Source: Acidimicrobiales bacterium
GTDB lineage: Bacteria; Actinomycetota; Acidimicrobiia; Acidimicrobiales; RAAP-2
NCBI GenBank assembly: GCA_015478655.1
Contig: JADMIJ010000012.1
Span: 25,947 to 49,946, forward strand
Reading direction: 5' to 3'
Length of the DNA stretch: 24,000 nt
The translations under genes were made by a program, and so were the position numbers. Under the pieces are notes generated by a model. The model was not told the DNA's origin and searched no databases. It was given only the letters and a program-made list of their open reading frames with translations. Numbering within the stretch: the stretch's first letter is position 1; the number at the start of each line of letters is the position of its first letter. Shown here piece after piece: positions 8,347 to 24,000 of the stretch.

Positions 8347-8347
8347 A

Positions 8348-9192: not shown

Positions 9193-9459
9193 TCACCCGG
9201 CCTCCGGCGGGCGGGTCGGGATCTCGAGGCGCCGGTCGTGGAGGAAGTGGAGCAGCGCGGCCAGGTTCCGGTCCCTCCATTCCGGACTACTCACGAGCCT
9301 GACCATCGCCGGCGGGTCGGACGGGTCCAGCACGCGGACCCTGGAGATCAGCAGCACCCCGACCACCTCGCCGACCGTCACCGCCGACGCGGCGGCGAAC
9401 AGCGCGTCCGCCAGGGCCTGCTCCTCGGTGGTGCCCTCGCGCCTCGTCTCGAGACTCAC
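9193..9459 (-). CDS. hypothetical protein (88 aa)
   Basis: The GTG start (9457-9459) overlaps the upstream TGA (9456-9458). Plausible peptide: ...EEQALADALFAAASAVTVGEVVGVLLISRVRVLDPSDPPAMVRLVSSPEWRDRNLAALLHFLHDRRLEI. Confidence 0.55.
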   Translation of the reverse strand: MSLETRREGTTEEQALADALFAAASAVTVGEVVGVLLISRVRVLDPSDPPAMVRLVSSPEWRDRNLAALLHFLHDRRLEIPTRPPEAG

Positions 9460-9683
9460 CACGGCCGCGCCGCCTCCTCCGCTTCTTCCGCGAAGTAGCG
9501 GATCGGCTCGTACCTCTCGCACCGCCGCTGGAGGAACGGCCCCCGGTCGTCCCGGCGCTCCGCCGCGCAGTCGCGGCACGGGCCGTCGAGCGCGTGGTGG
9601 AACTCGTCGTGTCCGCACACTACGTTTTGGCACACACCCGGGCGCCCCCGGTCGGAGGCGAACGTCACGCGGGCCCCGATCAC
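9456..9683 (-). CDS. small Cys/His-rich (Zn-binding-like) protein (75 aa)
   Basis: The GTG start (9681-9683) overlaps the upstream TGA. An ATG at 9695 is an alternative start. Peptide: ...GVCQNVVCGHDEFHHALDGPCRDCAAE... Confidence 0.5.
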   Translation of the reverse strand: MIGARVTFASDRGRPGVCQNVVCGHDEFHHALDGPCRDCAAERRDDRGPFLQRRCERYEPIRYFAEEAEEAARPW

Positions 9684-9862
9684 GGCTTCCTCCATGCCGC
9701 GAGCAGCCGCTCGGCGAACAACCGGGTCGCCGACGACCGCGGAAGCTCCTTGCGCGCCCCGGCCGCGAGGTGGAAGAGGTCCTGCCGCATCTCGGCGATC
9801 AGGGCGTCGTGATCCAGGCAGGCGTTGCACCCGTCGCAGTTGACTAGTCCGCACGACGTCAA
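9680..9862 (-). CDS. small Cys-rich protein (60 aa)
   Basis: The TTG start (9860-9862) overlaps the helicase TGA (9859-9861). Peptide: LTSCGLVNCDGCNACLDHDALIAEMRQDLF... Confidence 0.45.
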   Translation of the reverse strand: MTSCGLVNCDGCNACLDHDALIAEMRQDLFHLAAGARKELPRSSATRLFAERLLAAWRKP

Positions 9863-11508: not shown

Positions 11509-11762
11509 CGCTTCCTCGCCCTCGGTGTGTCCCACCGCGCGCCCCGTACCCCGACTATCCGCAGGACCAGTACGTCGCCCTCTGCGATGCCCAGGGTCTC
11601 CAGCATCAGATGGTCGACGGTAATCTGGCCCCTCTTCCTCAGTTTCGCCGCGAACTCGATCTGCCGCTCGTCGGGGAGCATCTTGAAACTCTGGTGGCCT
11701 GCCATGCGGGACCCCGTAACACTCTCGGATATATTCTGATTTCCTCGCACGGGCTGGGTCAC
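11505..11762 (-). CDS. AbrB/SpoVT/MazE-type DNA-binding protein (85 aa)
   Basis: KLRKRGQITVDHLMLETLGIAEGDVLVLRIV fits the swapped-hairpin AbrB fold signature. The GTG start (11760-11762) overlaps the primase TGA. Confidence 0.6.
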   Translation of the reverse strand: MTQPVRGNQNISESVTGSRMAGHQSFKMLPDERQIEFAAKLRKRGQITVDHLMLETLGIAEGDVLVLRIVGVRGARWDTPRARKR

Positions 11763-14557
11763 TCGCGCCCCCGGAACGGTAGCCGCTCCGGCCAGCCCCC
11801 GGGCCGGTAGTGCTCCCGGCCGTCCTCGCCGACGTACGACTTGCCCAGGCCCATCAAGCGGCCGAAGGCCCCGCTCACCGCCCCGGCCGAGTGGGCGGTG
11901 CGAAGACGGGTGCGTGTCACGTCTCGGTCCCAGACCCCCGGGCCCTGCGCGTCGAGGATCGGGATCAGGTCCGCGTACGCCGCGTCGATTTCCAGGTCCG
12001 GAGGGGCCGCCACCACTCCCCCCTCATCGCTCCGTTCCAGCGCGGCCCTGGCCCCGTCCGCCCGTGTAGCGCGCCCGGCGAAAACGTCCTCCGGGTCCGG
12101 CGTCGTCCGGCCGGCCCGGCCGGGCTCGAGCGCTAGCTTTTCGTTGTTCCTCCCTGATGCTGTTCCCGAGTTTTTCGGGGAGGCGTTTTGACCCGGCCGG
12201 GCCGGCCGGGCTCCGTCAGTGGACCCCCCCGGACCGTCCGGATCGCCGTCGGTCCGTTGACCCCCCCCTTCGGCGTCGAGCCGTTTCTGTCCGTCGCTGG
12301 TCCCGGGACCCTGTAGCCCGGACTGCGACGAACCCCCGTACCGGAACCTCAGCCCCCTCCACGCTTTCTCGCGTCGGCCCTCCACCTGCGGGCGGTGGGG
12401 GCGTATGCCGGGGACGATCCGCACGATCTCCGCCCCGACCTCCTGTTTGGTCATCGCCTCGGGCACTCCGTTGGCCTCGCAGAACTCCGCGTACCGCGCG
12501 TAGAACTCGTCCTTCAGGACCCACTCGTCGGGGTCGCGCACCACCTCCTCCTGGACGAACCACTCGAGGGACGCGGACCGCTTGAGCCAGTCCTCCGTCG
12601 CCCGCCGCACCGTCTCGCCCGGTGCGAACCGGCCCCGTTCCCATAGACGGTGCCGCCCCTCCAGGGCCCAGTTGAGGATCCCCGGGAGGGACTTGCAGAG
12701 GCGGGGAACGAGGAACGAGTCCCGCCGCTCAAGCGGGATGAAGACCGGCCACTCGATCACGAGGACCCGGCGCTTGAACGCCCCGTCGATCCTCTTGACG
12801 GCGGGGAGACGCTGGCCGCTGAACACCAGCTTGGCGCCGTTGACGAACTTGAACGGCTGCTTGTTCTTCTTCTCGGCCCGGACGTAGTCCCCGCCGGTGA
12901 GACTCTTGAGCTTGTCCGTCTTGGTGAGCGTCTGGAGCGGGATGTCGGCCGCGATGTTGGCGAGCTTCCCGTAGAGCTCCGCCACCGAGAACCGGTTCTC
13001 GGAGATCGTCTGCGGCGGCTCGTGGGAGCAGCTCGCGGTGCCTAGGAGTTCCGCGAGTACCGACAGGAACGTCGACTTGCCGTTCGCCCCCTCGCCGACG
13101 TGGAAGAACATCGTCTGCAGCTCGTTCCCCGGCGAGAGGCAGTAGCCGACCATCTCCTGGATGAGCGTGCGGTTCTCCGGCTCCGGCTGGACCTCGGCGA
13201 GCCACGCGAGGAACGGGGCCGGGTCGGCGTCATTGTCGTACGCCACGGGGATGCGGTACGTGAAGCGGTCCTTCTCGGGATCGTGGTCACGGCGTTCCCC
13301 CTTGCCGAGATCGTACACGCCGTTGACCAGGTTCACGAGGCCGGGCCGGTTGAACGTCTCCCGGTGGACGAAGGTGGCCGCCCGCACGGCGTTGACCACC
13401 TCGTTCCGGTGGTTCTTCTTCGCCGAGGCCGACCTGATTTGGAATTGCCGCTCCACCCACGACTCGATGAACGCCTCGGCGAACCCGTTGTAGACCCCCC
13501 TCTCGTACCGGAGGATCTCCCGGGTGTCGGGGAGGGAGCAGAAGTGCTCCTCCTGCAACACCCGCCATACCGCGCCGGCGTGGACCCACGCGCCCTCGGC
13601 GGACCACATCGGAGGGGGCTCGCCGATCAACGGACCGGTGGCGGGGAAGCCCGGCAGGACGTCCGATGGTGGTGTGGTCGGGCTCTCCACCCGCCGATCG
13701 GCCGGCGCTGATGGGCCGGGCGGGGTACCCGCACTTCCTGCCTCGGGTGTGTGAACCGGGTCGGCGCCGGTGTCCGAGCGGGTGGAGTTGGATGGGGGCG
13801 CGGGCCGGCCGAACTTCCCGAGCGCGGACCGGACCGCAGTCTCGATGTCCCTGTCCCGGGACGGCCACCGGTCGTCGTCACTGGCCGCGTACATGGCCGG
13901 CTTGACGATGGCGAGGGCCTGCGCCTCGGTGATCCCCGGAGTGCGGGAGACGACCGAGGCGGCCAACGAGATCAGGTAGTCGTGCCGGCGGCCGTGCGGG
14001 ATCCGGCCGTCGGTGTCGGTCCCGAACTGGCGGGGCGCGGCCGGCGCCGGAGCGGCCCGGAGGAGCCACCCCGGCAGCATCGGCGGTCTCGGCCCGCCGA
14101 CCAGCGGGACGACCCACTCGTACGTGTTCCCCGAGGCGTGCGGGCTCGGCGGGGCCACGACGTACGAGCCGTCGCCCTGGAGGTCGAGCCCCGGCCGGAA
14201 GCCGTGGGCCGGCGGCACGTTCCCGCCGGGGTGCGCGAAGTACCGGTGCTCCCCGCCTCCGCCCGTCTTCGCGACGGGCCCGCGCGGGAGCAGCCCGTGC
14301 TCCTCCAGCAGGGCCTCGAGGCTGTCGTCGCCGCCGTGGCGCGGGTCGACGTCGAGGACCACGAGGCCGGACACCGACCCCATCGGGACGCCGATCCCCG
14401 CGCCCGGATTCTCGGCCCACCACTTGTGGATCGTGTCCGCGTCCCGGGTCGAGTCCTTGAAACCGTGGGGCGTGAGCGGGGTCTTGTCGGCCTTCACGGG
14501 GAACACGGGGAGGCCCGACTTAGCATAGCAGAGTGCGGCCTCGAGGAGGGTGGTCAT
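11759..14557 (-). CDS. bifunctional primase-polymerase (prim-pol) fused to a D5/P4-type SF3 helicase (932 aa)
   Basis: The N-terminus GLPVFPV...LVVLDVDPRHGG...GGGEHRYF...GSYVVAPPS is a prim-pol signature. Walker A VGEGANGKSTF is at 13070-13096, with downstream D5_C-like sequence. The C-terminal roughly 200 aa are a low-complexity linker followed by a small domain. A single frame runs throughout. Confidence 0.85.
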   Translation of the reverse strand: MTTLLEAALCYAKSGLPVFPVKADKTPLTPHGFKDSTRDADTIHKWWAENPGAGIGVPMGSVSGLVVLDVDPRHGGDDSLEALLEEHGLLPRGPVAKTGGGGEHRYFAHPGGNVPPAHGFRPGLDLQGDGSYVVAPPSPHASGNTYEWVVPLVGGPRPPMLPGWLLRAAPAPAAPRQFGTDTDGRIPHGRRHDYLISLAASVVSRTPGITEAQALAIVKPAMYAASDDDRWPSRDRDIETAVRSALGKFGRPAPPSNSTRSDTGADPVHTPEAGSAGTPPGPSAPADRRVESPTTPPSDVLPGFPATGPLIGEPPPMWSAEGAWVHAGAVWRVLQEEHFCSLPDTREILRYERGVYNGFAEAFIESWVERQFQIRSASAKKNHRNEVVNAVRAATFVHRETFNRPGLVNLVNGVYDLGKGERRDHDPEKDRFTYRIPVAYDNDADPAPFLAWLAEVQPEPENRTLIQEMVGYCLSPGNELQTMFFHVGEGANGKSTFLSVLAELLGTASCSHEPPQTISENRFSVAELYGKLANIAADIPLQTLTKTDKLKSLTGGDYVRAEKKNKQPFKFVNGAKLVFSGQRLPAVKRIDGAFKRRVLVIEWPVFIPLERRDSFLVPRLCKSLPGILNWALEGRHRLWERGRFAPGETVRRATEDWLKRSASLEWFVQEEVVRDPDEWVLKDEFYARYAEFCEANGVPEAMTKQEVGAEIVRIVPGIRPHRPQVEGRREKAWRGLRFRYGGSSQSGLQGPGTSDGQKRLDAEGGGQRTDGDPDGPGGSTDGARPARPGQNASPKNSGTASGRNNEKLALEPGRAGRTTPDPEDVFAGRATRADGARAALERSDEGGVVAAPPDLEIDAAYADLIPILDAQGPGVWDRDVTRTRLRTAHSAGAVSGAFGRLMGLGKSYVGEDGREHYRPGGWPERLPFRGRE

Positions 14558-14892
14558 TGGGGGACCCCGGCTTCCTTCTTGGCGGCCGCGCGGTCACGGG
14601 CCCTATAGCGGGCGGTTTCCATCAGACGCTCGGCGAAGAAGTCGAACCGGGCACCAAGCAAGAGCATGAACTCGCGGTACTCGTCCGCACTCATCGTACC
14701 CTTCACGATGTTGCACCGGGAACAGCAGACGGTTCGATTCTCTGGGTTGTCGTCGCCACCGCGGGCACGTGATGTCATGTGGTCCCCCGAGGGGACCCAC
14801 CGCCGATCCTCGCCAGACATGATGTGTCCGCAATAGGGACACGGCTTTCCGACGAACTCGGGGTACTTGCGTACGGTGACGGACGTGCTCAT
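14554..14892 (-). CDS. HNH endonuclease (112 aa)
   Basis: CPYCGHIM...SGDHMTSRARGGDDNPENRTVCCSRCNIVKG is the HNH/Zn-finger signature. Its TGA overlaps the primase ATG (ATGA at 14554-14557). Confidence 0.75.
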   Translation of the reverse strand: MSTSVTVRKYPEFVGKPCPYCGHIMSGEDRRWVPSGDHMTSRARGGDDNPENRTVCCSRCNIVKGTMSADEYREFMLLLGARFDFFAERLMETARYRARDRAAAKKEAGVPQ

Positions 14893-15322
14893 GCGCGCTC
14901 GCAGGGGACGCCGGCGGCGGCCGGGACGCGGCGACCGCACGAGGGGCAGCGGACGTCACTCGTCGAGGGACACACTCATCATCGCCTCTGGTCGGGGGGG
15001 CGACGCCATGAGCGGAGTCCCTAATGAACATGCGGTTCCAGTTTCCATCGGAAACGGTGGGGGGTCGACGGGGATGGCAGGGCGGGCGGTCCCCCGACCT
15101 TCCGGAAGCGAGATCGCTACCGTCCCGCCGTGCCGGGTACGTATATTGGACAGGGGTCTATATAGCTTCCGGAACCATCGCCCCGTCGCAGTGGTCCAGT
15201 CTGTGCGGGGATGATCCCGGCCCGGTCCTCTCCTCCTCCCTCGCCCCCCCGCCCGGACCGGGGGACCCCGTATCACGACCCCCCCGGCCGGGTTGATATA
15301 CACGAACGAGTTTGTCTTGTCC
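14893..15322. promoter_or_regulatory. divergent control region between the replication operon and the plus-strand operon
   Basis: A 430-bp region without convincing coding sequence. It contains the palindrome cttccggaag (15099-15108) and a second ttccggaa (15167-15174). These flank A/T islands gtatatt (15141-15147) and ctatatag (15158-15165). It also contains the hairpin gtttcc-atc-ggaaac (15041-15055), a pyrimidine tract (about 15227-15255) flanked by cccggtcc/ggaccggg, and ttgatatac (15293-15301) about 25 nt before the ATG at 15323. Confidence 0.55.
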
Positions 15323-15484
15323 ATGCGCTACGTCTCGTTCGCGGCGGACGACAAGGAGGCGGCGATGATCGACCGGCTCAAGAGAAAGCTCAGGGACGAA
15401 CTCGACCGGCGGGTGTCGACGAAGGAGGCCGTGCTCCACGCCGTCGGGCTCGCGCTCGGCCACGACGTCGCCGGGGGCCGGTGA
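15323..15484 (+). CDS. ribbon-helix-helix (CopG/Arc-like) protein (53 aa)
   Basis: MRYVSFAADDKEAAMIDRLKRKLRDELDRRVSTKEAVLHAVGLAL has an RHH-like strand-helix-helix pattern. It is the first gene of the plus-strand operon. Confidence 0.55.
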   Translation: MRYVSFAADDKEAAMIDRLKRKLRDELDRRVSTKEAVLHAVGLALGHDVAGGR

Positions 15485-15485
15485 C

Positions 15486-16436
15486 ATGGCGGACCGGGAC
15501 GAGGCGACGGGCCGGCAGAAGCAGTTCCTCCTGGACCTCGGGTGCACGGAGGCACCGGTCGGCCTGACCCGCGCCCAGGCCTCGGCGTGGATATCCGAGC
15601 TCCGCGACCACCAGGCGATCGTGGCGACCGGCGCGAAGGCGACCGCGAGGGCCGACCTCTTCACCGTCCCCCCGGGCGGGTCACCATCACCGTCGCCGGC
15701 GGGCGGACAGGCGGGCGACTCCCCGTCCCGCCCGGGGGGGGGACCGGCCGCGTCCGCTTCTTCTTCCGCGGCCCCGTCGCCCGCCCCGCAACCCGCCGGC
15801 GCCCCCGCGCCGCTCGCCGCGGCCGCCGCGTCCGTCCAGGAGCCGCCCGGGTTCAGGACCGGCACGCAGGTGCTGGCCGAGCGGCAGGCCGAGGCGGAGC
15901 TCGTCGTCCGGTCGCGGGAGTCCTGGGAGCGGGCGGCCGGCCTGACCGCCGAGCAGATCACGATCCTGCGCGACGCGGGGCGCTTCCCGAAGGACGCCCG
16001 GGAGAACGAGATCCGCTTCGGGCTCGCCTTCGCGCACCGGCTCGGTCTCGACGTGTTCTCGGGGCAGGTGAAGTACATCCGGTTCGAGGAGAACGGCCCG
16101 ATGTCGCCGTTCATCGGCATCGATGGGATGGCGGCGCTCGCTAACAAGACGGGGCAGCACGACGGCTGGGAGATGAAGACCGAGGTCGACAAGGAGGGGA
16201 GGCCGGCCCGGTGCACGGTGACGGTGCACCGCAAGGACCAGAAGCACCCCGTGGTCGTCGCGCTCGAGTACGCCGAGGCGGTCAAGTACCGCAAGGACGG
16301 GGCGGTGACCCGGTCGTGGCGGGAGGGCCCGAAGCGGATGCTCGAGAAGGCGACCCGCGCGGCGGCTCTCCGGGCCGCGTTCCCCGAGACGCTGAGCGGG
16401 GTCTTTGAGACGAGCGAGGTCGCCGTTGAGGAGTGA
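15486..16436 (+). CDS. recT: RecT-family single-strand annealing recombinase with an N-terminal extension
   Basis: The C-terminal roughly 170 aa read LGLDVFSGQVKYIRF...PFIGIDGMAALANKTGQHDGWE...RSWREGPKRMLEKATRAAALRAAFPE, which is RecT-like. The N-terminus has a short helical module (QKQFLLDLG...LTRAQASAWISELR) followed by a roughly 90-aa P/A/S/G linker. Confidence 0.75.
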   Translation: MADRDEATGRQKQFLLDLGCTEAPVGLTRAQASAWISELRDHQAIVATGAKATARADLFTVPPGGSPSPSPAGGQAGDSPSRPGGGPAASASSSAAPSPAPQPAGAPAPLAAAAASVQEPPGFRTGTQVLAERQAEAELVVRSRESWERAAGLTAEQITILRDAGRFPKDARENEIRFGLAFAHRLGLDVFSGQVKYIRFEENGPMSPFIGIDGMAALANKTGQHDGWEMKTEVDKEGRPARCTVTVHRKDQKHPVVVALEYAEAVKYRKDGAVTRSWREGPKRMLEKATRAAALRAAFPETLSGVFETSEVAVEE

Positions 16437-16440
16437 TCCG

Positions 16441-16983
16441 ATGGATGTGCCAAAGTCCACGGCATGGTACCGAGCCAACCCAGAGCGTGCGAAGGCCAAT
16501 TGCGACATGTGGCGGCAGCACAACCCGCAGAAGGTGCGCGTGTTCATGGACCGCAGCAACGCACGTCGCCGGCAAAAGTGGCGGACCGACGCCGCGTGGC
16601 GCGAATCCCGTCTCGTGTCCTCCAAGAAACTGAACAAACTCCGGGGGCCGGTGTGGTGGGCGAGCAAGAAGCGGAAGGTACTGGAACGGTTGGGGGGCGC
16701 ACACTGCGTACGGTGCGGAGCGACCGACCTCCGCATCCTCGAAGTGAATCACATCGGTGGGGGTGGGAGGCTGGAACCGCGCTCCGGGCTAGAGCTGTAC
16801 GCCGAGATCCGACGGGGAGTTCGTTCTTCGCAAGGCTTGAACGTCCTCTGCCGCCCGTGCAATTCTATCGACTACATCGAACGCAGATTTCCAGACCTCG
16901 CGGGGCGGATTCAGGTTGTGTGGTGTCCCGCTCTCCCGGCGGTCGAGACGCGCGCCGTGCCGGCGCTGCCGGGGAAGAAGTAG
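16441..16983 (+). CDS. free-standing HNH (homing-type) endonuclease (180 aa)
   Basis: CVRCGATDLRILEVNHIGGGG...LNVLCRPCN is the HNH signature. Third positions are visibly more A/T-rich than in neighbouring genes. It has short spacers on both sides rather than 4-nt overlaps. Confidence 0.7.
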   Translation: MDVPKSTAWYRANPERAKANCDMWRQHNPQKVRVFMDRSNARRRQKWRTDAAWRESRLVSSKKLNKLRGPVWWASKKRKVLERLGGAHCVRCGATDLRILEVNHIGGGGRLEPRSGLELYAEIRRGVRSSQGLNVLCRPCNSIDYIERRFPDLAGRIQVVWCPALPAVETRAVPALPGKK

Positions 16984-16997
16984 GAGGACCCGGCGCC

Positions 16998-17516
16998 ATG
17001 ATCCGGCCACCGAAGGGGAGGAAGCCATACATCGGCACGTCCGTTGGCGTCGACCAATCGAAGAATCAGATCACCAAGCTGCTCCGCGACTACGGGGCCG
17101 AGGGGGTCGTGTGGGGCGACAATTTCCAGACGGGCGAGGTCAACCTCCGATTCGCCGTTCAGCGCGAGGACGGTCGCACGACGATCTTCTCGATCACCCC
17201 CGCCGCGTTCAAGGAGAAGCACACGAGCTACGACCCCGTGAAGGGTCGGAGCGTCACGATCGAGGCCCCGAACTGGCCTCGCGCGATGCGGCTCCTCCAC
17301 GCCTGGCTCAAGACGAAGCTCGAGTCCATCGCCTACGGCCTCACCGAGGTCGAGGAGGAGTTCCTCGCGCAGATGGTCGTCCGCGACGCGAGCGGCCGGG
17401 AGACGACGGCGGGCGAGCTGATCCTGCCGGCGATCGAGCAGGGCGGCGGGCGTCTCGCGCTCGAGCCGCCGAGGAAGCGGGAGAACGTCGTCGACGCGGA
17501 GTCGGGGCCCGCATGA
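16998..17516 (+). CDS. hypothetical protein (172 aa)
   Basis: The ATG is preceded by AGGAGG (16983-16988) at 9-nt spacing. The peptide is clean (…YIGTSVGVDQSKNQITKLLRDYGAEGVVWGDNF…). No motif recognised. Confidence 0.65.
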   Translation: MIRPPKGRKPYIGTSVGVDQSKNQITKLLRDYGAEGVVWGDNFQTGEVNLRFAVQREDGRTTIFSITPAAFKEKHTSYDPVKGRSVTIEAPNWPRAMRLLHAWLKTKLESIAYGLTEVEEEFLAQMVVRDASGRETTAGELILPAIEQGGGRLALEPPRKRENVVDAESGPA

Positions 17517-17734
17517 TGGTGAACGGCCAGCCGTGCCCCTCGACCCACGGGGGCTCGGGCTACCCGATGGGCGCGGTGCGCGAGGCGGACGGGTCGATGC
17601 ACTGCCAGTTCTGCGGGGCGGAGATGCAGGTCCGCCCGGAGTTCTTCGGGCGCCACGTGGAGGACCTCACGGTTCCCCCGCGGCGACGGTTCTTCCGACG
17701 GTTCGCCGAGCGGCTGCGGGGGATTGTCCGGTGA
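17513..17734 (+). CDS. small protein with a CxxC pair (73 aa)
   Basis: ATGA overlap at 17513-17516. Peptide: ...GSMHCQFCGAEMQVRPEFF... Confidence 0.5.
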   Translation: MMVNGQPCPSTHGGSGYPMGAVREADGSMHCQFCGAEMQVRPEFFGRHVEDLTVPPRRRFFRRFAERLRGIVR

Positions 17735-18033
17735 CGCCCGCCGGCGTCCTCGACAAGCTGCGGGCCTTGCTCGCGGCGTCGGAGAAGGAGCTGCGGATCG
17801 ACGACCTCAACGCCATGCGCCAGGAGGGATACCGTGGGGGACTCCGGTGGGCTATCGAACTGATCGAGGCCGACCCGCTCCACAAGGCCGCGCCGGACCT
17901 CGAGGGGCTGGTGCGCGACCTCCGGCGGATCCGCGTGTGGGGCCCCGACGACGCCCCGTCGGCCGAGCTGCTGGAGTGGAACCGGCGCGCCGAGGCGGTC
18001 CTCGCCACGCTGCCGAGGGAGGATTCCCCGTGA
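17731..18033 (+). CDS. hypothetical protein (100 aa)
   Basis: GTGA overlap at 17731-17734. Plausible helical peptide. Confidence 0.5.
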   Translation: MTPAGVLDKLRALLAASEKELRIDDLNAMRQEGYRGGLRWAIELIEADPLHKAAPDLEGLVRDLRRIRVWGPDDAPSAELLEWNRRAEAVLATLPREDSP

Positions 18034-18272
18034 CCGGGCCGACGCTCCACGAGCGGTTCCCCGCGGCCCACGACTGGGTCACCATCGAGGTCGACTCCGC
18101 GGACCACGCCTCGCACATGGTGTGCAAGGCCTGCGGGTGCGAGATGATCACTCCGGACAGATACGTCGGGAACGTCATAGTGGTCCCGCCCTGCCGGGCC
18201 TCGGCGAAGGTCGAGATCACCTCCGCCACGGACGCGGCGAGGGACCTGCTCACCAAGAAGGAGGGGCCGTGA
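18030..18272 (+). CDS. small Cys-containing protein (80 aa)
   Basis: GTGA overlap at 18030-18033. Peptide: ...HMVCKACGCEMITPDRYVGNVIVVPPC... Confidence 0.5.
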   Translation: MTGPTLHERFPAAHDWVTIEVDSADHASHMVCKACGCEMITPDRYVGNVIVVPPCRASAKVEITSATDAARDLLTKKEGP

Positions 18273-18436
18273 GGGCCCGCCCGGTGATCGACCCGCATCG
18301 CTGGCTCCGGCGCCACACGAACCGGGGGCACGTCGTCAACATCTCGATCGCCGGGGCCGGGAAGGCGAAGCTCCGCAGGGTCGAGTACCTGACCTGCAAC
18401 CAGTCCATGCGCCCCGGGCGCGGGAAGAAGGACTAG
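18269..18436 (+). CDS. small basic protein (55 aa)
   Basis: GTGA overlap at 18269-18272. It is below the 60-aa cut-off when counted from this start. Confidence 0.4.
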   Translation: MRARPVIDPHRWLRRHTNRGHVVNISIAGAGKAKLRRVEYLTCNQSMRPGRGKKD

Positions 18437-18438
18437 CC

Positions 18439-18603
18439 GTGACGCCCGACGACGTGCCGGCGGAGGCGCGGAGCTGCACCTGCGGTTGCGGGATGTCCTT
18501 CCACAACTGGGGCCGGGACGGCTTTCCGCGGATCATGACGGTGGCCGAGACCCTCTCGAACATCTGCGACTCGTGCGGCCACCCGCCGGAGGGGCCGAAA
18601 TGA
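18439..18603 (+). CDS. small Cys-rich protein (54 aa)
   Basis: GTG lies 2 nt after TAG at 18434-18436. Peptide: VTPDDVPAEARSCTCGCGMSFHNWGRDGFPRIMTVAETLSNICDSCGHPPEGPK. Its TGA overlaps the next ATG. It is not in the ORF track because it is shorter than 60 aa. Confidence 0.45.
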   Translation: MTPDDVPAEARSCTCGCGMSFHNWGRDGFPRIMTVAETLSNICDSCGHPPEGPK

Positions 18604-18881
18604 CGCTCGCCGAGACCGCCGCCAAGATCGGGGAACGGTCGAAGGTGCATGCCGAGAAGGACGGGGAGCGAGCAGCCGGATACGTTGCGGGTCTCCGGGA
18701 CTCGCTCCATGCCATCGAGGCCGACCCCGACTTCAAGCTCCACGCGAAGGTGGAGGTACTGGCGGCGGAATACGACGCGGCGTGCCAATACCGCCACGGG
18801 GGCCACTTGCCGGAGTTCATTGGCGTCTGCGAGTACCGGGATGTCGCCCGCCGCCTCCGCGAGTTGCTGGGGGACAAATGA
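18600..18881 (+). CDS. hypothetical protein (93 aa), paralogue of the next gene at its C-terminus
   Basis: ATGA overlap at 18600-18603. Ends ...GVCEYRDVARRLRELLGDK. Confidence 0.55.
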   Translation: MTLAETAAKIGERSKVHAEKDGERAAGYVAGLRDSLHAIEADPDFKLHAKVEVLAAEYDAACQYRHGGHLPEFIGVCEYRDVARRLRELLGDK

Positions 18882-19240
18882 CGCTGGACGGCCCGTGGCA
18901 CGCCGAGAGGTACATGTCGAGCGACAAGCCCGACGCCAAGCGGATCGGCACGATGGTCGTGTGCGGCGACCTCGAGGAGTTCCCCCTCGTCGAGTTCGTC
19001 CTCGAGGACGAGGCATACGCCAGGAGGATCATCGAAGACCACGAGCTCCGCGAGCGGGTCGAGAAGCTGGCGCGGGAATTGGAAACCGCTGCGGAGGAGG
19101 GCGAGTATCATGGGATTTTCAACTGTGAACATCTCGCCCGCCGCCTCCGCGAGCTGCTGACCCCATCCGATTCAACACCCGGCTCGGGAAACCGTCCCCC
19201 CGCCCCGGTGGCGGGTAAGGGGGAGGAACGGAGCGGATGA
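18878..19240 (+). CDS. hypothetical acidic protein (120 aa), paralogue of the previous gene at its C-terminal motif
   Basis: ATGA overlap at 18878-18881. Contains ...GIFNCEHLARRLRELLTPSD. Confidence 0.55.
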   Translation: MTLDGPWHAERYMSSDKPDAKRIGTMVVCGDLEEFPLVEFVLEDEAYARRIIEDHELRERVEKLARELETAAEEGEYHGIFNCEHLARRLRELLTPSDSTPGSGNRPPAPVAGKGEERSG

Positions 19241-19244
19241 CCGA

Positions 19245-19736
19245 ATGAAGATTCTGGACGCGACCGCAGGGAACCGGGGAATCTGGTTCGACAAGGACTA
19301 CCCGGATGCGACCTTCATCGACATCCGAAAGGAAACCCACCCGGGAAACCTCATGGTCGACGCCCGTCACACCGATTTCGCGAGCAGCTCCTTCGACCTG
19401 GTCGTTTTCGACCCGCCTCACATGGCGATCGGGCCGAGAGCTCAGATGGCTCAGCGGTACGGGTCCTTCCCGACGGCGTACATCCGGGAGTTCGTCGTGG
19501 ATGCCTTCCGGGAGTTCCGCCGCATCCTCAAGCACGATGGGTTGGTCGCGTTCAAGTGGAATGACCATGACACGGCTCTGAGGAGCGTGCTGGCCCCCGT
19601 GACGGGGTTTGAACCGCTCGTGGGCGTACGGGTCGCGCAGCGGCTTCATCACAAGTCGGAGACGAGCTGGGTTTTGCTGCGCCGCTCGAACCACGATGGC
19701 CAGAAACAGCTCCCTCCACCAGAAGGGGACCGATGA
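19245..19736 (+). CDS. small SAM-dependent methyltransferase with a DPPH motif (probable DNA N6-adenine/N4-cytosine MTase, 163 aa)
   Basis: KILDATAGNRGIWF is motif I-like. SFDLVVFDPPHM is motif IV (D/S-P-P-Y/F/H). Third positions are more A/T-rich than in its neighbours. Confidence 0.65.
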   Translation: MKILDATAGNRGIWFDKDYPDATFIDIRKETHPGNLMVDARHTDFASSSFDLVVFDPPHMAIGPRAQMAQRYGSFPTAYIREFVVDAFREFRRILKHDGLVAFKWNDHDTALRSVLAPVTGFEPLVGVRVAQRLHHKSETSWVLLRRSNHDGQKQLPPPEGDR

Positions 19737-20047
19737 CCGACCGCATCACCATCCGGCGCCTCGTGAACCTGGGCCAGTACGAGCACCTCTCCGTGGAGGT
19801 CTCCCACGAGGTCCCCGTGGAGGAGCCGAAGGAGACGCGCGATCTCGTCGACAGGGTCGAGCGGTACGCGCGGCTCTACAAGCGCAGGGTCGAGATCGAG
19901 CGCGAGCTCGCCCAGGCCACGCGGGAGCTCGAGTGGGCCCGCGAGCGGGTCGGCCTCTCCGAGGACGCGGGGCGGCACGACGTCGAGGTCAGGATCGACA
20001 GGTTCCGCCACGACCTCGAGGAGACCGACGGCGAGTGGGAGAGCTGA
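19733..20047 (+). CDS. hypothetical charged/coiled-coil protein (104 aa)
   Basis: ATGA overlap at 19733-19736. Listed in the ORF track. Confidence 0.55.
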   Translation: MTDRITIRRLVNLGQYEHLSVEVSHEVPVEEPKETRDLVDRVERYARLYKRRVEIERELAQATRELEWARERVGLSEDAGRHDVEVRIDRFRHDLEETDGEWES

Positions 20048-20212
20048 GTGACCCCGGCCCGCCACCCGCCGCCGATAGAACCGGTCCTCTCCCCGCGATG
20101 CCGCGACCCCTGCGAACACTCCGCCCTCGGGCACTACCCGGGCGGCCCCTGCTACGCGAGGGGGTGCCGGTGCGGCGGGTACCGCCCGCCCGAGCGGAGA
20201 AGCTCCTGGTGA
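20048..20212 (+). CDS. small Cys-rich protein (54 aa)
   Basis: GTG immediately follows TGA at 20045-20047. Peptide: VTPARHPPPIEPVLSPRCRDPCEHSALGHYPGGPCYARGCRCGGYRPPERRSSW. Shorter than 60 aa, so not in the track. Confidence 0.4.
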   Translation: MTPARHPPPIEPVLSPRCRDPCEHSALGHYPGGPCYARGCRCGGYRPPERRSSW

Positions 20213-20565
20213 TGTGCGACCGGTGCAGGTCCGAGAGGCCGTGCGGCCGGTGCGCCTGCCGGAGGACGATCCGCCCGAAGGACTCGAGCGCGCGGAGGCT
20301 CGGCTATGGGATCTGTGTGACCTGCGGCCACTACGTCAGCCGGCGACCGCCTTCCAGAGGCGGTTCGACCGCCACAGTATCCGGAGCGGACGGAGACCGC
20401 GGGCCCGCAGGTGGCGCAGCGCCTCCCGCCGCATCGCGTAGGGCGAGAACCGGCCGGGCGGCAGACGTATCTCGACCAGGGCGTCCATCGTGGCCCGGAC
20501 CTCGTCGGTCGTCATCCCGAGCAGGACCTGCTTCCAACGGTAGCGCAGGCGCATCTCGCGGATGA
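20212..20565 (+). CDS. possible small Zn-ribbon protein with an uncertain 3' end
   Basis: ATG at 20212 shares one nt with the previous TGA. The N-terminus MCDRCRSERPCGRCACRRTIRPKDSSARRLGYGICVTCGHY is plausible. Past about 20336 the frame is antisense to the GGR-like gene and reads as low complexity. Confidence 0.3.
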   Translation: MCDRCRSERPCGRCACRRTIRPKDSSARRLGYGICVTCGHYVSRRPPSRGGSTATVSGADGDRGPAGGAAPPAASRRARTGRAADVSRPGRPSWPGPRRSSSRAGPASNGSAGASRG

Positions 20566-21568
20566 ACGGGGCCAGCCCGCGCTCGTAACCGTCCGGGTCG
20601 TCGGCGGCGACGGCCAAGGCCGCCGCGACGCCGGACGCGAGTGCCTGGTGGATCCCGCCGCCGGTCAGGGGGTCGCACATGCGCCCCGCGTCGCCGAGGG
20701 ACAGGACGCGGCCCCGGTGGAGCTTCCGGTCCGGCCGGTAGGTCGGGATGACGCCGCCCATGCGGTGGTGCGCCGGCAGGTGGAACTCCGGGAAGTCCCG
20801 GAGGAAGCCGTCGAAGTACTTCCGCACCGGGACCGGGACGCCCCGCGCGTCGCGGACCGACAGCGGCGTGCCGATCCCGACGCGCAGGTGCGCGACCCCG
20901 TCCTCGGAGCTGGGGAACACCCACGCGTACCCGCTCGGCGCCCAGTCGCCCAGGTAGAGCGTCACCCGGTCGGGCGGGTGCTGCCCCGTGTTGGGCACGG
21001 AGACCTCGAGGCCGTTGTGCCGGTCCTCGTCGGGCAGGGCGCGCGTGATCCCGAGCCGACGCGAGATCCGGGAGTCGTAGCCGCCCGCGTCGAGGACCCA
21101 CGAGGCGGTGACGGCATGGCGACCGTGGGTCTCCCGCAGGTCGACCTCGTAGACGTCCCCCTTCCGCCGGGCGTCCTCCGCGTGGGTCGCGTGCCAGAAC
21201 GCGACGCCGGCGCGGGCCGCCTCGGCCTCAATCCTGCCGAGAAAGTTCGCCTCCTGCAGGACGACCCCGAGTTCCGGCGCGAGGGGGTTCCCGGCGCTCA
21301 GGACGCGCTCCGTGCCGGGCGGGTCGCCGGAGACGACGAGGCGGAACGACCGGATCGGTGAGGAGACGGCGTCGGGGGTGGGTGGGAAGCCGAGCTGCTC
21401 CAACCAGTACGACGCGATCCCGCTCGTGCTAGACGGTGGGTACCCACTACGCCCCCGGCGGTCGACCACCAGGACCCGCGAGCCGCGCCCCGCGCGGGCG
21501 AGCGACACGGCGGCGGCCTGGCCGGCGTAGCCTGCCCCGACCACCACCACGTCGTAGTCGGGCCTCAG
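20336..21568 (-). CDS. FAD-dependent geranylgeranyl-reductase-family oxidoreductase
   Basis: DYDVVVVGAGYAGQAAAVSLARAG is a dinucleotide-binding motif (GAGYAG at 21521-21541). LGDAGRMCDPLTGGGIHQALASG is the GGR-type second FAD motif. The start is uncertain: CTG at 21568 overlapping the upstream TGA, or GTG at 21550. The upstream 100 aa of the 509-aa track ORF look non-coding. Confidence 0.75.
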   Translation of the reverse strand: MRPDYDVVVVGAGYAGQAAAVSLARAGRGSRVLVVDRRGRSGYPPSSTSGIASYWLEQLGFPPTPDAVSSPIRSFRLVVSGDPPGTERVLSAGNPLAPELGVVLQEANFLGRIEAEAARAGVAFWHATHAEDARRKGDVYEVDLRETHGRHAVTASWVLDAGGYDSRISRRLGITRALPDEDRHNGLEVSVPNTGQHPPDRVTLYLGDWAPSGYAWVFPSSEDGVAHLRVGIGTPLSVRDARGVPVPVRKYFDGFLRDFPEFHLPAHHRMGGVIPTYRPDRKLHRGRVLSLGDAGRMCDPLTGGGIHQALASGVAAALAVAADDPDGYERGLAPFIREMRLRYRWKQVLLGMTTDEVRATMDALVEIRLPPGRFSPYAMRREALRHLRARGLRPLRILWRSNRLWKAVAG

Positions 21569-21816
21569 AACGTGCCCCCCGCCACGTCGTCCGTGCGCGA
21601 CGGACCGACGCAGACGTGCGTCCACCCGATGAAGATGGCCCCGCCGCACCGGGCGCACTCGCCGACGGGCCTCGGCGGACAGGTGTGCGCGGAGCCGGCC
21701 ATCACCATCGCGCCGCAGGAGCCGCACCGGTACGACGCCCACCAGGGCGGCGGGAGGTAGTACCGGGTGTCGCCGAACGAGACCGTCCGGGCCCCCCCGC
21801 GCAGCGGACGGATCAT
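21565..21816 (-). CDS. small Zn-ribbon-like protein (83 aa)
   Basis: The ATG at 21816 overlaps the upstream TGA (ATGA at 21813-21816). Peptide: ...YRCGSCGAMVMAGSAHTCPPRPVGECARCGGAIFIGWTHVC... Confidence 0.55.
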   Translation of the reverse strand: MIRPLRGGARTVSFGDTRYYLPPPWWASYRCGSCGAMVMAGSAHTCPPRPVGECARCGGAIFIGWTHVCVGPSRTDDVAGGTF

Positions 21817-22121
21817 CCCAGCCCCTTGACCCGGTGGACGATCCGGCCGAGCGCGCCGAGCGCACCGAGACGCTCCGCGACCTCGCCGACGCGCCGGGCG
21901 AACGCGGTGATCTCGCCGCGCCCGACGTCCTCCCCCAACTCGGCGATCCGCACGAGGTCCTCGCCGATTATCCGGTACGCCGTGATGTGGGACCTGCACC
22001 AGTCGCAGTTCGGCGAGGCCTCGGCCGCCCGCGCCTCCGCGACGGAGTTCCGCAGGTGGGTCAGCGTTTCTCCTTCGGTGTTTCTGGGCACGGTTGCTTC
22101 CTCAGCTCCGCTTCCTTGCAT
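21813..22121 (-). CDS. hypothetical protein (up to 102 aa) with an uncertain start
   Basis: The 3' two-thirds have G/C-rich third positions (…SPNCDWCRSHITAYRIIGEDLVRIAELGEDVGRGEITAFARRVGEVAERLG…). The first roughly 18 codons from ATG at 22121 have A/T-rich third positions. Alternative starts are GTG at 22091 (GAGGAA upstream) and CTG at 22066. A competing 36-aa ORF (22061-22171) occupies another frame. Confidence 0.5.
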   Translation of the reverse strand: MQGSGAEEATVPRNTEGETLTHLRNSVAEARAAEASPNCDWCRSHITAYRIIGEDLVRIAELGEDVGRGEITAFARRVGEVAERLGALGALGRIVHRVKGLG

Positions 22122-22171
22122 CTGATAAGGCGTTCGAGGAGGGTCTCGCGGCCCTCGGGACAGTCGGGCAT

Positions 22172-22215
22172 CGCCAACCATAGGCTTATTCCCCCAAATG
22201 TAATTGACCGTTCCG
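22172..22215. promoter_or_regulatory. 44-bp divergent intergenic spacer with two A/T boxes
   Basis: cttatt (22185-22190) is centred about 28 nt before the plus-strand ATG at 22216. aaatgtaatt (22196-22205) is centred about 29 nt before the minus-strand ATG at 22171. There is no Shine-Dalgarno sequence on either side. Confidence 0.4.
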
Positions 22216-23970
22216 ATGGCGACCGGCGAGCAAGTCGACGAGAGCATCTTCGAGGACCTGCCCGAGGGAGTGTCGAAGGGGCAGGCCAAGCAGGCGTGGA
22301 GGGCGAGGGAGCTGATCTGGCGCCTGACTTACGAGAAAACCCCGATGGCCGATATCGCACGGACGGTTCGGGCCCCCGCGACAGCGGTCGAGTGGGTGAT
22401 ACAGGGCCGTACCGGCCCGGCCGAGACGTCCCATACGTCCACGCCGGACGTGGGCGTGGGACATCCCACGCCCACGAGGGGCGTGGACGAGGGGGGAGAG
22501 ACCCCCCAGTCCACCGAGGTTCCCGAGGGGACCATGACGGGCGGGGGGAACCCCGCGGCGCCCGCCGCGAAGACGCCGTCCGGGGGAGGGGGGACGCCCC
22601 GCGACATACCGCCGGAGCAGCGCCAGCAGATGCAGGCCCAGCTCGAGTCGCTGAACCTGGGCGACGTCGGCGCCCCCTCCGGCCGCTCCGTCTTCGCGGG
22701 CGCGGTCGAGATGCCGGACATGTACGCCCGGCTCGCGGAGGTGTGCAAGCTGCTCGGCCTGCAGCCGGAGAAGGCGAAGGGCGTCGCGGTCGCCTTCGCG
22801 TACCAGGCGAAGCCGACGGACCTGAAGAAGCTCCACGAGATCATCATCGGCGTCGGCGCCCCGCCCGGGCAGGCCCGGACCATCGTCGACACGTACCGCT
22901 CGATGAACACGTCGCTCTTCGACGGCGGGGCCGCCCCGCCGGACGCGGGGACGGCGAGCCTCGAGGAGCTGGAGCGCCGGTTCGGGATCCGCCCCGCGGC
23001 GTCGGGGGCCGAGAGCGAGGTCGACCGGCTGGACCGGGAGGAGCGGCAGCTCCGCATCCAGGAGGTCAAGCTCGCCATCGAGGAGAAGCGGAAGTCGCTC
23101 GGCCTGGCGCCCGGCGCGGCCGCCGGGTCCGGCGACGAGGGCACGATCGAGGTGATGATCAACGTCAACGGCGTCCCGGTGCCGAAGCGCATCAAGGAGA
23201 GCGACCTGCCGAGGTGGCAGCCGTTCATGGCGAGGCCCCCCGGGCAGGCGGCCGACGCCGAGGTGCCGGCGTGGGCGAAAGCCCTGCAGGACCAGAACAA
23301 GCTACTACAGGACCGCCTCGAGCGGCAGGACCGCGAGCGGGACGAGGAGCGCCGGCGCCGCGAGGAGGAGGAGCGGCTCGACCGCCGGCTGTCCCCCCTC
23401 CTGGAGGAGGTCAAGGCGCTGCGCGCCGGGAACCCCCAGGACTCCGACGTCGTGCGGGAGCTCAAGGCCCTGCGCGAGGACCGGGAGCGGCGACGGGACG
23501 AGGACCTCAGGGGCTGGCAGGGCCGCATGGAGGACCTCGTGAAGACCGGCATGAGCGTCGACGCGGCGGAGCGGAAGGTCCGCGAGGAGGACGACCGTGC
23601 CGTGCGGCGCGGCTTCGTGCCGCGCGGGCAGGTCGGCCGCCTCGAGGAGGAGCAGGTGCAGTTGGAGGCCGAGCGCAAGGCGAACGAGATCCAGAACAAC
23701 GCCAAGGCCAAGGCGTACGACGTGGTGGCGGCACGCGTCGGCGAGCAGCCCCTGATGACGATGGCCCGCGAGGCGAGGCTGCCCCAGATCGCCGGCGAGG
23801 TGCTCAAGCAGCGGGTCGGCGGGGCGCCGGAGAACCAGGGCGAGCTCGTGGAGCAGAGCCCCGAGCACCTGCAGCGGGCCGCCGCCGAGCTCGAGGGCAT
23901 CGCGGGCGCCGGCCAGGCGACCGCCGGGCGGGCCCGGACGGAACAGACCGGGACGACGCAGGGCCGATGA
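22216..23970 (+). CDS. large protein with an N-terminal HTH-like segment and a long charged coiled-coil (584 aa)
   Basis: I prefer the ATG at 22216 over the track's TTG at 22204. TPMADIARTVRAPATAVEWVIQG is HTH-like. Long R/E/D-rich heptad-like stretches are present (QDRLERQDRERDEERRRREEEERLDRR...). The whole length reads in one clean frame. Confidence 0.65.
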   Translation: MATGEQVDESIFEDLPEGVSKGQAKQAWRARELIWRLTYEKTPMADIARTVRAPATAVEWVIQGRTGPAETSHTSTPDVGVGHPTPTRGVDEGGETPQSTEVPEGTMTGGGNPAAPAAKTPSGGGGTPRDIPPEQRQQMQAQLESLNLGDVGAPSGRSVFAGAVEMPDMYARLAEVCKLLGLQPEKAKGVAVAFAYQAKPTDLKKLHEIIIGVGAPPGQARTIVDTYRSMNTSLFDGGAAPPDAGTASLEELERRFGIRPAASGAESEVDRLDREERQLRIQEVKLAIEEKRKSLGLAPGAAAGSGDEGTIEVMINVNGVPVPKRIKESDLPRWQPFMARPPGQAADAEVPAWAKALQDQNKLLQDRLERQDRERDEERRRREEEERLDRRLSPLLEEVKALRAGNPQDSDVVRELKALREDRERRRDEDLRGWQGRMEDLVKTGMSVDAAERKVREEDDRAVRRGFVPRGQVGRLEEEQVQLEAERKANEIQNNAKAKAYDVVAARVGEQPLMTMAREARLPQIAGEVLKQRVGGAPENQGELVEQSPEHLQRAAAELEGIAGAGQATAGRARTEQTGTTQGR

Positions 23971-24000
23971 GCGCGATCGACCACCTGCGCCGGATCCGGG
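23967..24000 (+). CDS. 5' end of the next gene (MSAIDHLRRIR...), truncated by the window
   Basis: The ATG at 23967 overlaps TGA at 23968-23970 (ATGA), the same coupling pattern seen elsewhere. Confidence 0.35.
   Translation, partial: MSAIDHLRRIR

Follow-up and report, generated by a model that had tools for sequence, protein, structure and literature searches.

The locus described here raises the question of why a mobile element would carry a flavoenzyme of the geranylgeranyl reductase (GGR) type in an operon of its own, together with a prenyltransferase of the UbiA family. The locus lies in a stretch of 24,000 nucleotides (nt), positions 25,947 to 49,946 of contig JADMIJ010000012.1 (assembly GCA_015478655.1), which is deposited as Acidimicrobiales bacterium; this whole stretch is referred to as the window. 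A preliminary description had placed a three- or four-gene cassette on the minus strand of the window and had proposed that its flavoenzyme and a distant UbiA-like protein act on a polyprenyl chain. Our analysis found four coupled genes in that place, the last of which encodes a flavin adenine dinucleotide (FAD) enzyme. The best explanation, which is given a probability of about 0.55, is that the window belongs to an archaeal integrative element and that the operon enzyme and the UbiA protein tailor an isoprenoid compound of the host. We infer the substrate, the direction of the chemistry, the domain of the host and the roles of the small operon proteins from the evidence given below. Coordinates are collected in Table 1, and related loci and proteins are referred to by L and P numbers.

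The FAD enzyme is assigned to the geranylgeranyl-reductase superfamily by its sequence and by its predicted three-domain GGR fold. Its best NCBIfam match was TIGR02032 (GG-red-SF; 141.6 bits, E 4e-41), followed by the models for archaeal digeranylgeranylglycerophospholipid (DGGGPL) reductases. A profile of the enzyme family searched against the PDB matched 3OZ2, the structure of the Thermoplasma acidophilum GGR (TaGGR), with an E-value of 2e-47 over residues 3-371, which is essentially the full length, and then the Sulfolobus GGR (SaGGR) with 1e-31 and halogenases with 1e-11. The AlphaFold2 (AF2) model of the enzyme had a predicted local distance difference test score (pLDDT) of 87.9 and a predicted template-modelling score (pTM) of 0.89. 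In Foldseek the seven best matches of this model were all GGR structures, with 3OZ2 first (TM-scores 0.81/0.83); the TM-score to SaGGR was 0.74, and the best non-GGR structures, halogenases and hydroxylases among them, reached mostly 0.6-0.65 and at most 0.70. A halogenase or group A monooxygenase was rejected as the identity of the enzyme on these E-values and TM-scores, and the Trp_halogenase Pfam model scored below its cut-off. Thus the closest homologues are not the unrelated flavoproteins which the preliminary description had named as the result that would speak against its proposal. No transmembrane segment was predicted in the enzyme by hydropathy analysis. The enzyme is under purifying selection, with a ratio of nonsynonymous to synonymous substitution rates (dN/dS) of 0.14-0.36 in comparisons with relatives of 71-87% identity.

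The literature gives as hallmarks of the GGR family (arCOG00570) the motifs GxGxxG, PxxYxWxFP (in the cavity), GGG, LxGD and RxxFD. In addition, all archaeal GGRs share a conserved active-site Cys behind the flavin, as do all GGRs with demonstrated activity, and in SaGGR it is essential (PMC10821996, PMC6309074, PMC12004948). The VVVVGAGYAG and GGR-type LGDAGRMCDPLTGGGIHQALASG motifs on which the earlier assignment was built are both present. The GxGxxG core reads GAGYAG, and all 14 family members have D36 as the acidic residue at the end of beta-strand 2. The cavity motif reads PSGYAWVFP, in which P211, Y214, W216, F218 and P219 are invariant with the cellular GGRs included, and the GD and GGG motifs (DPxTGGGI) read LGDAGRMCDPLTGGGI, in which G292, D293, T302 and G303-G305 are invariant. 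GxGxxG, PxGYxWxFP, GD and TGGGI are kept in all members of the enzyme family.

Several features weigh against a conventional GGR. First, the column of the active-site Cys (Cys47 in SaGGR) holds Ser47 (SSTSG) in both the HMMER and the MAFFT alignments, and this Ser replaces the Cys invariantly across the clade (G-Y-P-x-x-S-T-S-G). Secondly, RxxFD is lost and E(A/H)(N/S)FL is found instead, and LxGD has become SLGD; neither RxxFD nor LxGD is universal among GGRs, as SaGGR is without them. Third, the enzyme is under the curated cut-offs of TIGR02032 (141.6 vs 158.8 bits) and PF22578, the model of the GGR catalytic domain (26.6 vs 27 bits), which are near misses, yet these two models are its top specific matches. 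The scores for the narrower families named in the preliminary description fall far under their cut-offs: 34.4 vs 700 bits for the MenJ equivalog (NF045655), 60.5 vs 343.3 for the ChlP/BchP subfamily (TIGR02023), and 112.5 vs 780, 90.1 vs 580 and 53.4 vs 700 for the archaeal DGGGPL reductase equivalogs NF041160, NF041080 and NF041385. Because the defining Cys is absent, the enzyme was not filed as a GGR equivalog, MenJ or ChlP. Reduction of a polyprenyl chain is likewise something we infer and not a classification, because the Cys, the RxxFD motif and the cut-offs all failed. The earlier GGR-like label thus holds for the closest relatives and the fold, and does not extend to the catalytic Cys, RxxFD or the curated families.

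Relatives of the enzyme were sought among 1.84 billion representative proteins in an exhaustive HMMER search. Full-length clusters of the STSG type numbered only about seven (314-763 bits), and below them lies a continuum of GGR-like proteins with no more than 240 bits. Among more distant matches, RC[AG][EG]G goes with R..FD and [ST]T[GS]G occurs without R..FD. Because the loss of the Cys and the loss of RxxFD co-vary, the element enzyme was placed in a wider Cys-less branch of the GGR superfamily. The same co-variation through a whole subclade would also fit a flavoprotein which keeps the GGR fold and is no longer a C=C reductase. Such a protein could oxidize, desaturate, isomerize or hydrate an isoprenoid, oxidize a polyprenyl-phospho-sugar in the manner of DprE1/DprE2, or bind lipids without redox chemistry. 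Also consistent with a changed chemistry are the presence of the Cys in all experimentally active GGRs (PMC6309074), the low confidence of the Ser-bearing loop, which is the least confident part of the model (mean pLDDT 55 for residues 41-50; residues 39-42 below 50), and the sugar-metabolism genes near UbiA in related elements that are described below. It is considered rather unlikely, given that the FAD-binding motifs and PxxYxWxFP are invariant, that the Cys-less relatives P0089 and P0086 exceed the curated GG-red-SF cut-off, and that no family of other known chemistry matches better.

The four operon open reading frames (ORFs) were taken to be more than chance frames in DNA of 71% guanine plus cytosine (GC) because of their third-position bias (GC at third codon positions, GC3, of 0.90-0.95 against 0.53-0.69 at second positions), their syntenic homologues and the dN/dS of the enzyme. 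All four products have homologues on other contigs, and their order is conserved there. The 44-bp divergent spacer in front of the operon and the ATGA coupling at 21813-21816, where the start of the 83-aa gene overlaps the orf92 stop, are both in the sequence as previously described. Two TATA-like boxes lie back to back in the spacer, both some 29 nt away from the ATG on their side. The minus-strand box AATTACATTT (22205 to 22196) is centered 29.5 nt before ATG 22171 and the plus-strand box CTTATT (22185-22190) is centered 28.5 nt before ATG 22216, and these spacings agree with the distances from AT box to start codon across the element family. At the other end of the operon, the CTG at which the FAD enzyme may begin overlaps the previous stop as CTGA, and relatives have ATG or GTG at this place (M/V-RPD[YF]DVV). 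The next in-frame GTG is 18 nt downstream, and the public gene call is 403 aa. Judging from the sequence, the CTG could be a rare start or reinitiation site, the protein could be a shortened one from the GTG, or the CTG could be a sequence error.

The first operon gene encodes a 36-aa peptide (MPDCPEGRETLLERLIRCKEAELRKQPCPETPKEKR) with a conserved C-x10-C pair, and it overlaps the orf92 start by 31 nt in another frame. Homologues of 36-43 aa stand at the same position in L004, L013 (two copies), L023 and L024, with the consensus R.tLi[DE]RLvRCKEAElRK.PCpE; the peptide had no Pfam match. A programmed -1 frameshift fusing the peptide to orf92 was considered and rejected, as the -1 frame relation is conserved but no slippery heptamer was seen. 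For this reason the two were treated as overlapping genes. In L013 the peptide (…RxxCxEKARRNEPC…) is found at 5261 (+) and 9579 (+), and only one of the copies is upstream of the orf92-GGR operon. This duplication hints at a promoter-associated regulator or leader and not at an enzyme subunit.

Homologues of orf92 were found upstream of the GGR-like gene in L001, L004, L010, L012, L013, L023 and L024. Their CxWCRSH motif is invariant, and distant relatives retain only CxxCR. The AF2 model of orf92 (pLDDT 85.6) has three helices in a predicted three-helix bundle, for which no significant structural match was found, and the sequence had no Pfam, NCBIfam or PHROG match. The 83-aa miniprotein, described before as a Zn-ribbon protein, has two CxxCG-x(8-10)-HxC modules. 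Its slot is variable, with zero to three such genes in relatives. For example, L023 carries a homologue (67% identical) and a paralogue, at 10345-10581 and 10885-11094, and L012 has a weaker relative at 262-465, while L004 and L024 have no homologue. The sole family match of the miniprotein was weak and rubrerythrin-like (E 0.0085), and nothing meaningful was found in the PDB (best E 1.5). Thus the structure and PDB searches assigned no function to the small operon proteins, which counts against the proposed mechanism.

The second component of the proposal is the UbiA-like gene about 17 kb from the enzyme. The gene is present, and its limits were corrected to those in Table 1. The protein (UbiA1) scored 40.9 bits for PF01040 against a cut-off of 34.2, and at least eight hydrophobic or transmembrane segments were predicted from hydropathy. 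No NCBIfam subfamily came near its cut-off, and weak matches were to decaprenyl-phosphate phosphoribosyltransferase. Homologues of UbiA1 are 38-68% identical, all metagenomic and on the same kind of contigs. The preliminary description had asked whether related elements carry the two genes together, and GGR-like and UbiA genes co-occur in five of five elements with adequate coverage (Table 1). In addition, a small membrane protein adjoining UbiA1 (96 aa) has tblastn homologues in L023 (60%), L024, L017 and L004; the homologue in L023 is directly downstream of the GGR-like gene and those in L024 and L017 are near UbiA.

Some observations on UbiA1 are less favorable to the proposed pairing. The first Asp-rich motif is N[SG]xxDxxxD and not NDxxDxxxD (N56, D60 and D64 are invariant), and the second is degenerate, with E.KE...E.N in place of DxxxD. 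The second UbiA type found in relatives is canonical and keeps D..AD..AG. Also, no UbiA gene was found within the visible 10 kb around the GGR-like gene in L007, L013 and L001. L015 and L026 carry UbiA genes, and the position expected for the GGR-like gene is outside the sequence range covered.

A cellular Cys-less GGR offers a possible precedent for the pair. On a contig of 565 kb (L025 6001-8362, GCA_964568185.1), the P0089 gene precedes a UbiA-family gene by 110 nt, and the element module might have its functional prototype in these two genes. The UbiA protein beside P0089 has no specific relation to UbiA1. An ATP-binding cassette (ABC) transporter gene and a glycosyltransferase family 2 (GT2) gene are near this pair in L025. 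Nucleoside-diphosphate (NDP)-sugar epimerase/dehydratase genes recur in related elements, one of which also has a GT2 gene near its UbiA genes. By their predicted families, the genes in these elements suggest a link to polyprenyl-phosphate-sugar or glycan metabolism.

The window is, by its predicted gene content, the replication and maintenance region of a mobile element, which agrees with the mobile-element context proposed before. Homologues of the enzyme at 71-87% identity are confined to metagenomic contigs, several of which are 60-71 kb long and which are largely from soil. A gene order recurs among them: integrase, a small gene, ParA, two small genes and a large protein of 545-623 aa, and divergently from these the peptide, orf92, zero to three Zn miniproteins, the GGR-like gene and, further on, PrimPol. 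This order holds in the window and in L001, L004/L017/L018/L019, L013, L023 and L024, that is, in every related locus with enough sequence. The 584-aa protein divergent from the operon represents the large protein in the window. Its homologues, which are 25-38% identical, adjoin the operon in L001, L004, L013, L015, L023 and L024, where this protein is the first gene of the ParA/integrase module, and it is the conserved neighbor which defines the operon slot. The operon is a conserved core part of the element family, and its slot has the integrase/ParA module on one side and the PrimPol gene on the other. Because backbone proteins are only 25-40% identical between elements, the arrangement was judged to be old.

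Identities of individual genes differ between elements. The GGR-like enzyme of the window is 78% identical to that of L004 and 44% to that of L023, while orf92 is 32% identical to L004 and 66% to L023. For orf92, the Zn protein and UbiA1 together, the window is 66-68% identical to the L023 element (68% for UbiA1) and 32-48% identical to L004. Enzyme alleles are thus mosaic between elements, which would indicate allele exchange by recombination within a fixed slot. A GGR gene uniformly more conserved than the backbone was ruled out by these mosaic alleles. The preliminary description had likened the operon to a 'moron' or accessory cassette, that is, a recent acquisition with no fixed tie to the element. 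Its orientation opposite to the flanking operons, its own promoter spacer and the mosaic alleles would fit such an origin. The slot and gene order are constant in every related element examined, in spite of the diverged backbone, the operon has the composition of its surroundings (GC 0.74, against 0.71 for the whole window), and no terminator-like site follows the gene, so that a recent acquisition is very improbable and the name was given up.

The 60-90 kb integrative elements with an integrase, ParA and a PrimPol-D5 helicase are a previously undescribed family. The window DNA had no match in 50,697 phage or 72,556 plasmid records, nor did the enzyme protein. IMG/VR held no relative of the enzyme, and BFVD gave only generic flavoprotein folds for it. 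PHROG searches of the large proteins in the visible parts of the related loci found no capsid, portal or terminase, and no tRNA or Rfam feature that could mark an attachment (att) site was found in the window or related loci; one ARAGORN tRNA call in L007/L009 was unconfirmed by Rfam. The L004-type element occurs as contigs of 60.6 and 63.3 kb. A further copy lies at 133.6-154.6 kb, near the contig end, in L018 (JGI 3300041955 Ga0455671_0000321, 156,496 nt). This copy may be integrated, in which case the other 130 kb or so of the contig would belong to the host.

The host of these elements is quite likely archaeal, as judged from sequence features, and probably belongs to high-GC soil archaea of the Thermoplasmatota. 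First, archaeal GGRs are closest to the enzyme, both among structures and among cellular homologues. Secondly, P0012, which is 48% identical to the enzyme, is encoded on a 120-kb contig binned five times among archaea, as 'Euryarchaeota archaeon' in four protein accessions and as 'Thermoplasmata archaeon REEB18'. Third, the positions of AT-rich boxes were tested on element sequences of 63-72% GC. In a first test on seven non-redundant loci, 11 of 46 AT-rich 8-mers were centered 24-28 nt before start codons, against 6% at random. When L023 and L024 alone were used, 2 of 17 fell in the prespecified window, so that the result was not replicated. For this reason a second test, independent of AT boxes, was adopted, in which starts were predicted by coding statistics alone and the strongest AT 8-mer was taken from the 60 nt upstream of 103 genes with an upstream gap. 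Strong AT boxes fell at -36 to -25 in 20 of 42 cases, where 23% were expected (P = 3e-4), and there was no enrichment near -10. By these predicted starts, the boxes are placed as archaeal TATA boxes are in front of leaderless transcripts.

Apart from the unreplicated subset, several observations qualify the archaeal assignment or favor a bacterial host. The labels on short contigs of closer relatives conflict, one of 2 kb being Nitrososphaerales and one of 6 kb Acidimicrobiales, which is also the label of one UbiA1 homologue. Bacterial phages are the more typical carriers of RusA, RecT and Vsr, which together with HNH endonucleases and DNA methylases are common in actinophages. The element could accordingly be a temperate phage or an integrative and conjugative element of actinobacteria, with a MenJ/HepR-like flavoprotein and a UbiA protein resembling MenA or DPPR synthase. 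The GC content of 70%, the Arg-rich proteins, the weak match of UbiA1 to decaprenyl-phosphate phosphoribosyltransferase and the PrimPol matches, which are mostly to actinobacterial and streptococcal phages, would fit this. The PrimPol and helicase matches are just 25-33% identical, to bacterial and haloarchaeal viruses alike, and were therefore taken as non-discriminating for the host; the helicase also matches haloarchaeal tailed viruses. A bacterial element is improbable in view of the lack of any match among the phage and plasmid records, the MenJ score, which archaeal GGR models and structures far exceed, and the archaeal binning of the P0012 contig. Also, the AT boxes stand at about -27 from start codons and not at about -10, and no sigma-70-like promoters above chance were found in 14000-24000, the part scanned; a terminator scan of the same part found nothing above chance. 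The bacterial context first taken for the window therefore gave way to a most likely archaeal one, on the labels of metagenome-assembled genomes (MAGs) and the AT-box spacing. With an archaeal host, the candidate substrates shift to archaeal ether lipids, quinones and dolichol-type carriers.

The archaeal reading can be drawn together as a mechanism. The window would be part of an integrative element of about 65 kb from the 60-90 kb family, and the four genes would form a leaderless operon driven by the TATA-like box in the 44-bp spacer. The enzyme and the three small Cys-bearing proteins would be co-transcribed and translationally coupled, from a promoter that stands where the maintenance and replication modules meet. 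UbiA may transfer a polyprenyl chain onto an acceptor or load a polyprenyl phosphate with a group, and the flavoenzyme would then alter the saturation state of the same isoprenoid chain. The target could be an ether lipid (e.g. unsaturated archaetidic acid), a side chain of the quinone/menaquinone type or a dolichol-type glycan carrier; the last of these stays alive because epimerase/dehydratase and GT2 genes recur near UbiA. The element could thereby remodel the membrane or surface of its host during carriage. The small Cys-bearing proteins would be candidate metal-binding redox partners, by analogy with euryarchaeal GGR-ferredoxin pairs (PMC9385802), or regulators of the divergent promoter. 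A more specific proposal is made only tentatively: that elements of soil Thermoplasmatota-like archaea, which could be plasmids or unrecognized viruses, encode their own isoprenoid-lipid tailoring, with one or two divergent UbiA proteins, a small membrane protein, a mechanistically new Cys-less GGR variant and dedicated metal-binding partners.

Table 1. Positions of predicted features in the window and of selected genes in related loci
Feature	Sequence	Coordinates	Strand	Remarks
Minus-strand gene block	window	495-14892	-	GC3-filtered map
96-aa three-transmembrane membrane protein	window	1610-1900	-	adjoins UbiA1; hydropathy
UbiA-like (UbiA1)	window	1902-2981	-	359 aa, PF01040
RusA	window	3127-3588	-	
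N6/N4 DNA methylase	window	4789-6702	-	
Vsr	window	8348-8848	-	
Rad3-type helicase	window	9859-11535	-	
PrimPol-D5	window	11759-14557	-	
HNH endonuclease	window	14554-14892	-	coupled to PrimPol gene by ATGA
Plus-strand gene block	window	15323 to ~20212	+	
53-aa ribbon-helix-helix-like ORF	window	15323-15484	+	directly 5' of RecT
RecT	window	15486-16436	+	
DNA methylase	window	19245-19736	+	
Minus-strand four-gene unit	window	22171-20336	-	
FAD enzyme	window	21568 (CTG) or 21550 (GTG) to 20336	-	410 or 404 aa
83-aa Cys/His-rich miniprotein	window	ATG 21816 to 21565	-	
92-aa protein (orf92)	window	GTG 22091 to 21813	-	
36-aa peptide	window	ATG 22171 to stop 22061	-	first operon gene
Divergent promoter spacer	window	22172-22215		44 bp, between ATG 22171 and ATG 22216
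584-aa coiled-coil-rich backbone protein	window	22216-23970	+	ATG 22216, divergent from four-gene unit
GGR-like and UbiA together	window			
GGR-like and UbiA together	L004/L017/L018 element			two UbiA types, 6.4 and 9 kb from enzyme
GGR-like and UbiA together	71,429-nt contig			P0011 with P0051
GGR-like and UbiA together	87,468-nt contig			L023 with P0036
GGR-like and UbiA together	L024			
Sugar genes (NDP-sugar epimerase/dehydratase, one GT2)	L001	213-1205		
Sugar genes, as above	L024	637-996, 15872-16524		
Sugar genes, as above	L026	9587-10582		

The gene map was derived by filtering ORFs on third-position GC, since raw ORF lists at the GC content of the window are full of spurious frames. 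Plus-strand genes bound the four-gene unit, with ends at 20047/20212 on one side and the start of the backbone protein gene on the other. The apparent 288-bp gap downstream of the FAD enzyme is occupied by a 54-aa Cys-rich ORF of high GC3 (20048-20212, +), a copy of which in L012 is 87% identical. Coupled to it is a second Cys-rich ORF (MCDRCRSERPCGRCACRR...) from ATG 20212 onward (+), whose frame is antisense to the 3' end of the GGR-like gene and reaches 20565. Elsewhere, a large divergent intergenic region (14893-15322) separates the HNH gene from the ribbon-helix-helix-like ORF, which starts 26 nt past a TTGATATA box. The AT boxes GTATATTG and TCTATATAG are also in this region, with no obvious ORF downstream of them. 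The N6/N4 DNA methylase gene is overlapped at its start by the end of a gene for a 360-aa protein (3710-4792, -). In this protein a Rossmann-like segment at the N-terminus (VRVLLVDHD) is followed by a CxxxCxxC motif (GCIRACDFC). This layout of motifs is reminiscent of B12-binding radical-SAM enzymes; the protein had no Pfam, NCBIfam or PDB match and no homologue in the related loci.

Archaeal membranes are made of isoprenoid chains, the saturation of which is set by enzymes of the GGR family. To our knowledge, almost nothing has been reported on the manipulation of these membranes by mobile elements. New in this study are the STSG clade without the Cys, the fixed operon that combines it with small Cys proteins and its conserved pairing with UbiA, on an element family which the searched phage, plasmid and IMG/VR viral-contig collections do not contain. 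The conserved module of GGR-like enzyme and UbiA would provide a testable case of lipid or surface remodelling by an archaeal element. The natural Cys-less variant bears on the role of the active-site Cys and on the physiological reductant of GGRs. In addition, the module would be a marker gene set with which otherwise unrecognizable elements can be found in soil metagenomes. If the more specific proposal is true, the element would change how host membrane lipids, quinones or glycan carriers are saturated or prenylated while it is carried, and this tailoring could serve superinfection exclusion, the formation of envelopes or vesicles, or membrane adaptation. A conserved module for lipid remodelling would then be described for the first time among the core functions of a mobile element in archaea.

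Comparison with known systems places the enzyme beside, and not within, the characterized GGRs. TaGGR (Ta0516, 3OZ2) and SaGGR (3ATQ/4OPC) share its predicted fold over a full-length alignment, and they likewise have GxGxxG, PxxYxWxFP, GD and TGGGI, a length of about 400 aa and a soluble or peripheral character. However, the enzyme is only 20-23% identical to them, in addition to the differences in Cys, RxxFD and model scores discussed above, and it has conserved basic C-terminal helices of its own (GRFSPYAMRR...RLW[KR]A). Unlike TaGGR and SaGGR, it is encoded on a mobile element with three small Cys-bearing partners and no adjoining 4Fe-4S ferredoxin. Cellular, probably archaeal paralogues of the P0089 type resemble the enzyme in having Thr or Ser for the Cys, loss of RxxFD, a C-terminal RY.LK...P....R and a UbiA-family neighbor. 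P0089 differs in that it scores only about 200 bits to the element profile, has TTG[GA] and not STSG, passes TIGR02032 and has no peptide or orf92 partners.

Gene pairs of GGR and ferredoxin are known in euryarchaea, e.g. MA1484/MA1485 of Methanosarcina acetivorans (PMC9385802, PMC10821996). By analogy, the operon also combines a GGR-family enzyme with small Cys-rich proteins which might supply electrons. Unlike the ferredoxins, the small operon proteins are not of the 4Fe-4S type and have no Pfam match, and their Cys patterns are C-x10-C, CxxC and two copies of CxxCG...HxC. A DGGR gene has been described on jumbo circular extrachromosomal elements of Methanoperedens, which are 200-535 kb long and have large metabolic repertoires (PMC13444090). 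These elements resemble the present family in that a GGR-family gene is carried on an archaeal extrachromosomal element; they are set apart by their description, which indicates no conserved operon, UbiA pairing or Cys-less variant (PMC13444090). Genes for prenyl or geranylgeranyl functions go unmentioned in two large surveys of viruses and proviruses of archaea. Lastly, the seroconversion or lysogenic-conversion cassettes of temperate phages (e.g. gtrABC next to the integrase) differ from the operon in their enzymes, in the domain of their hosts and in the conserved core position that the operon has. The likeness to them is one of analogy, in that both would act on polyprenyl-linked or membrane targets, stand near an integration module and be expressed, in all likelihood, in the carried state.

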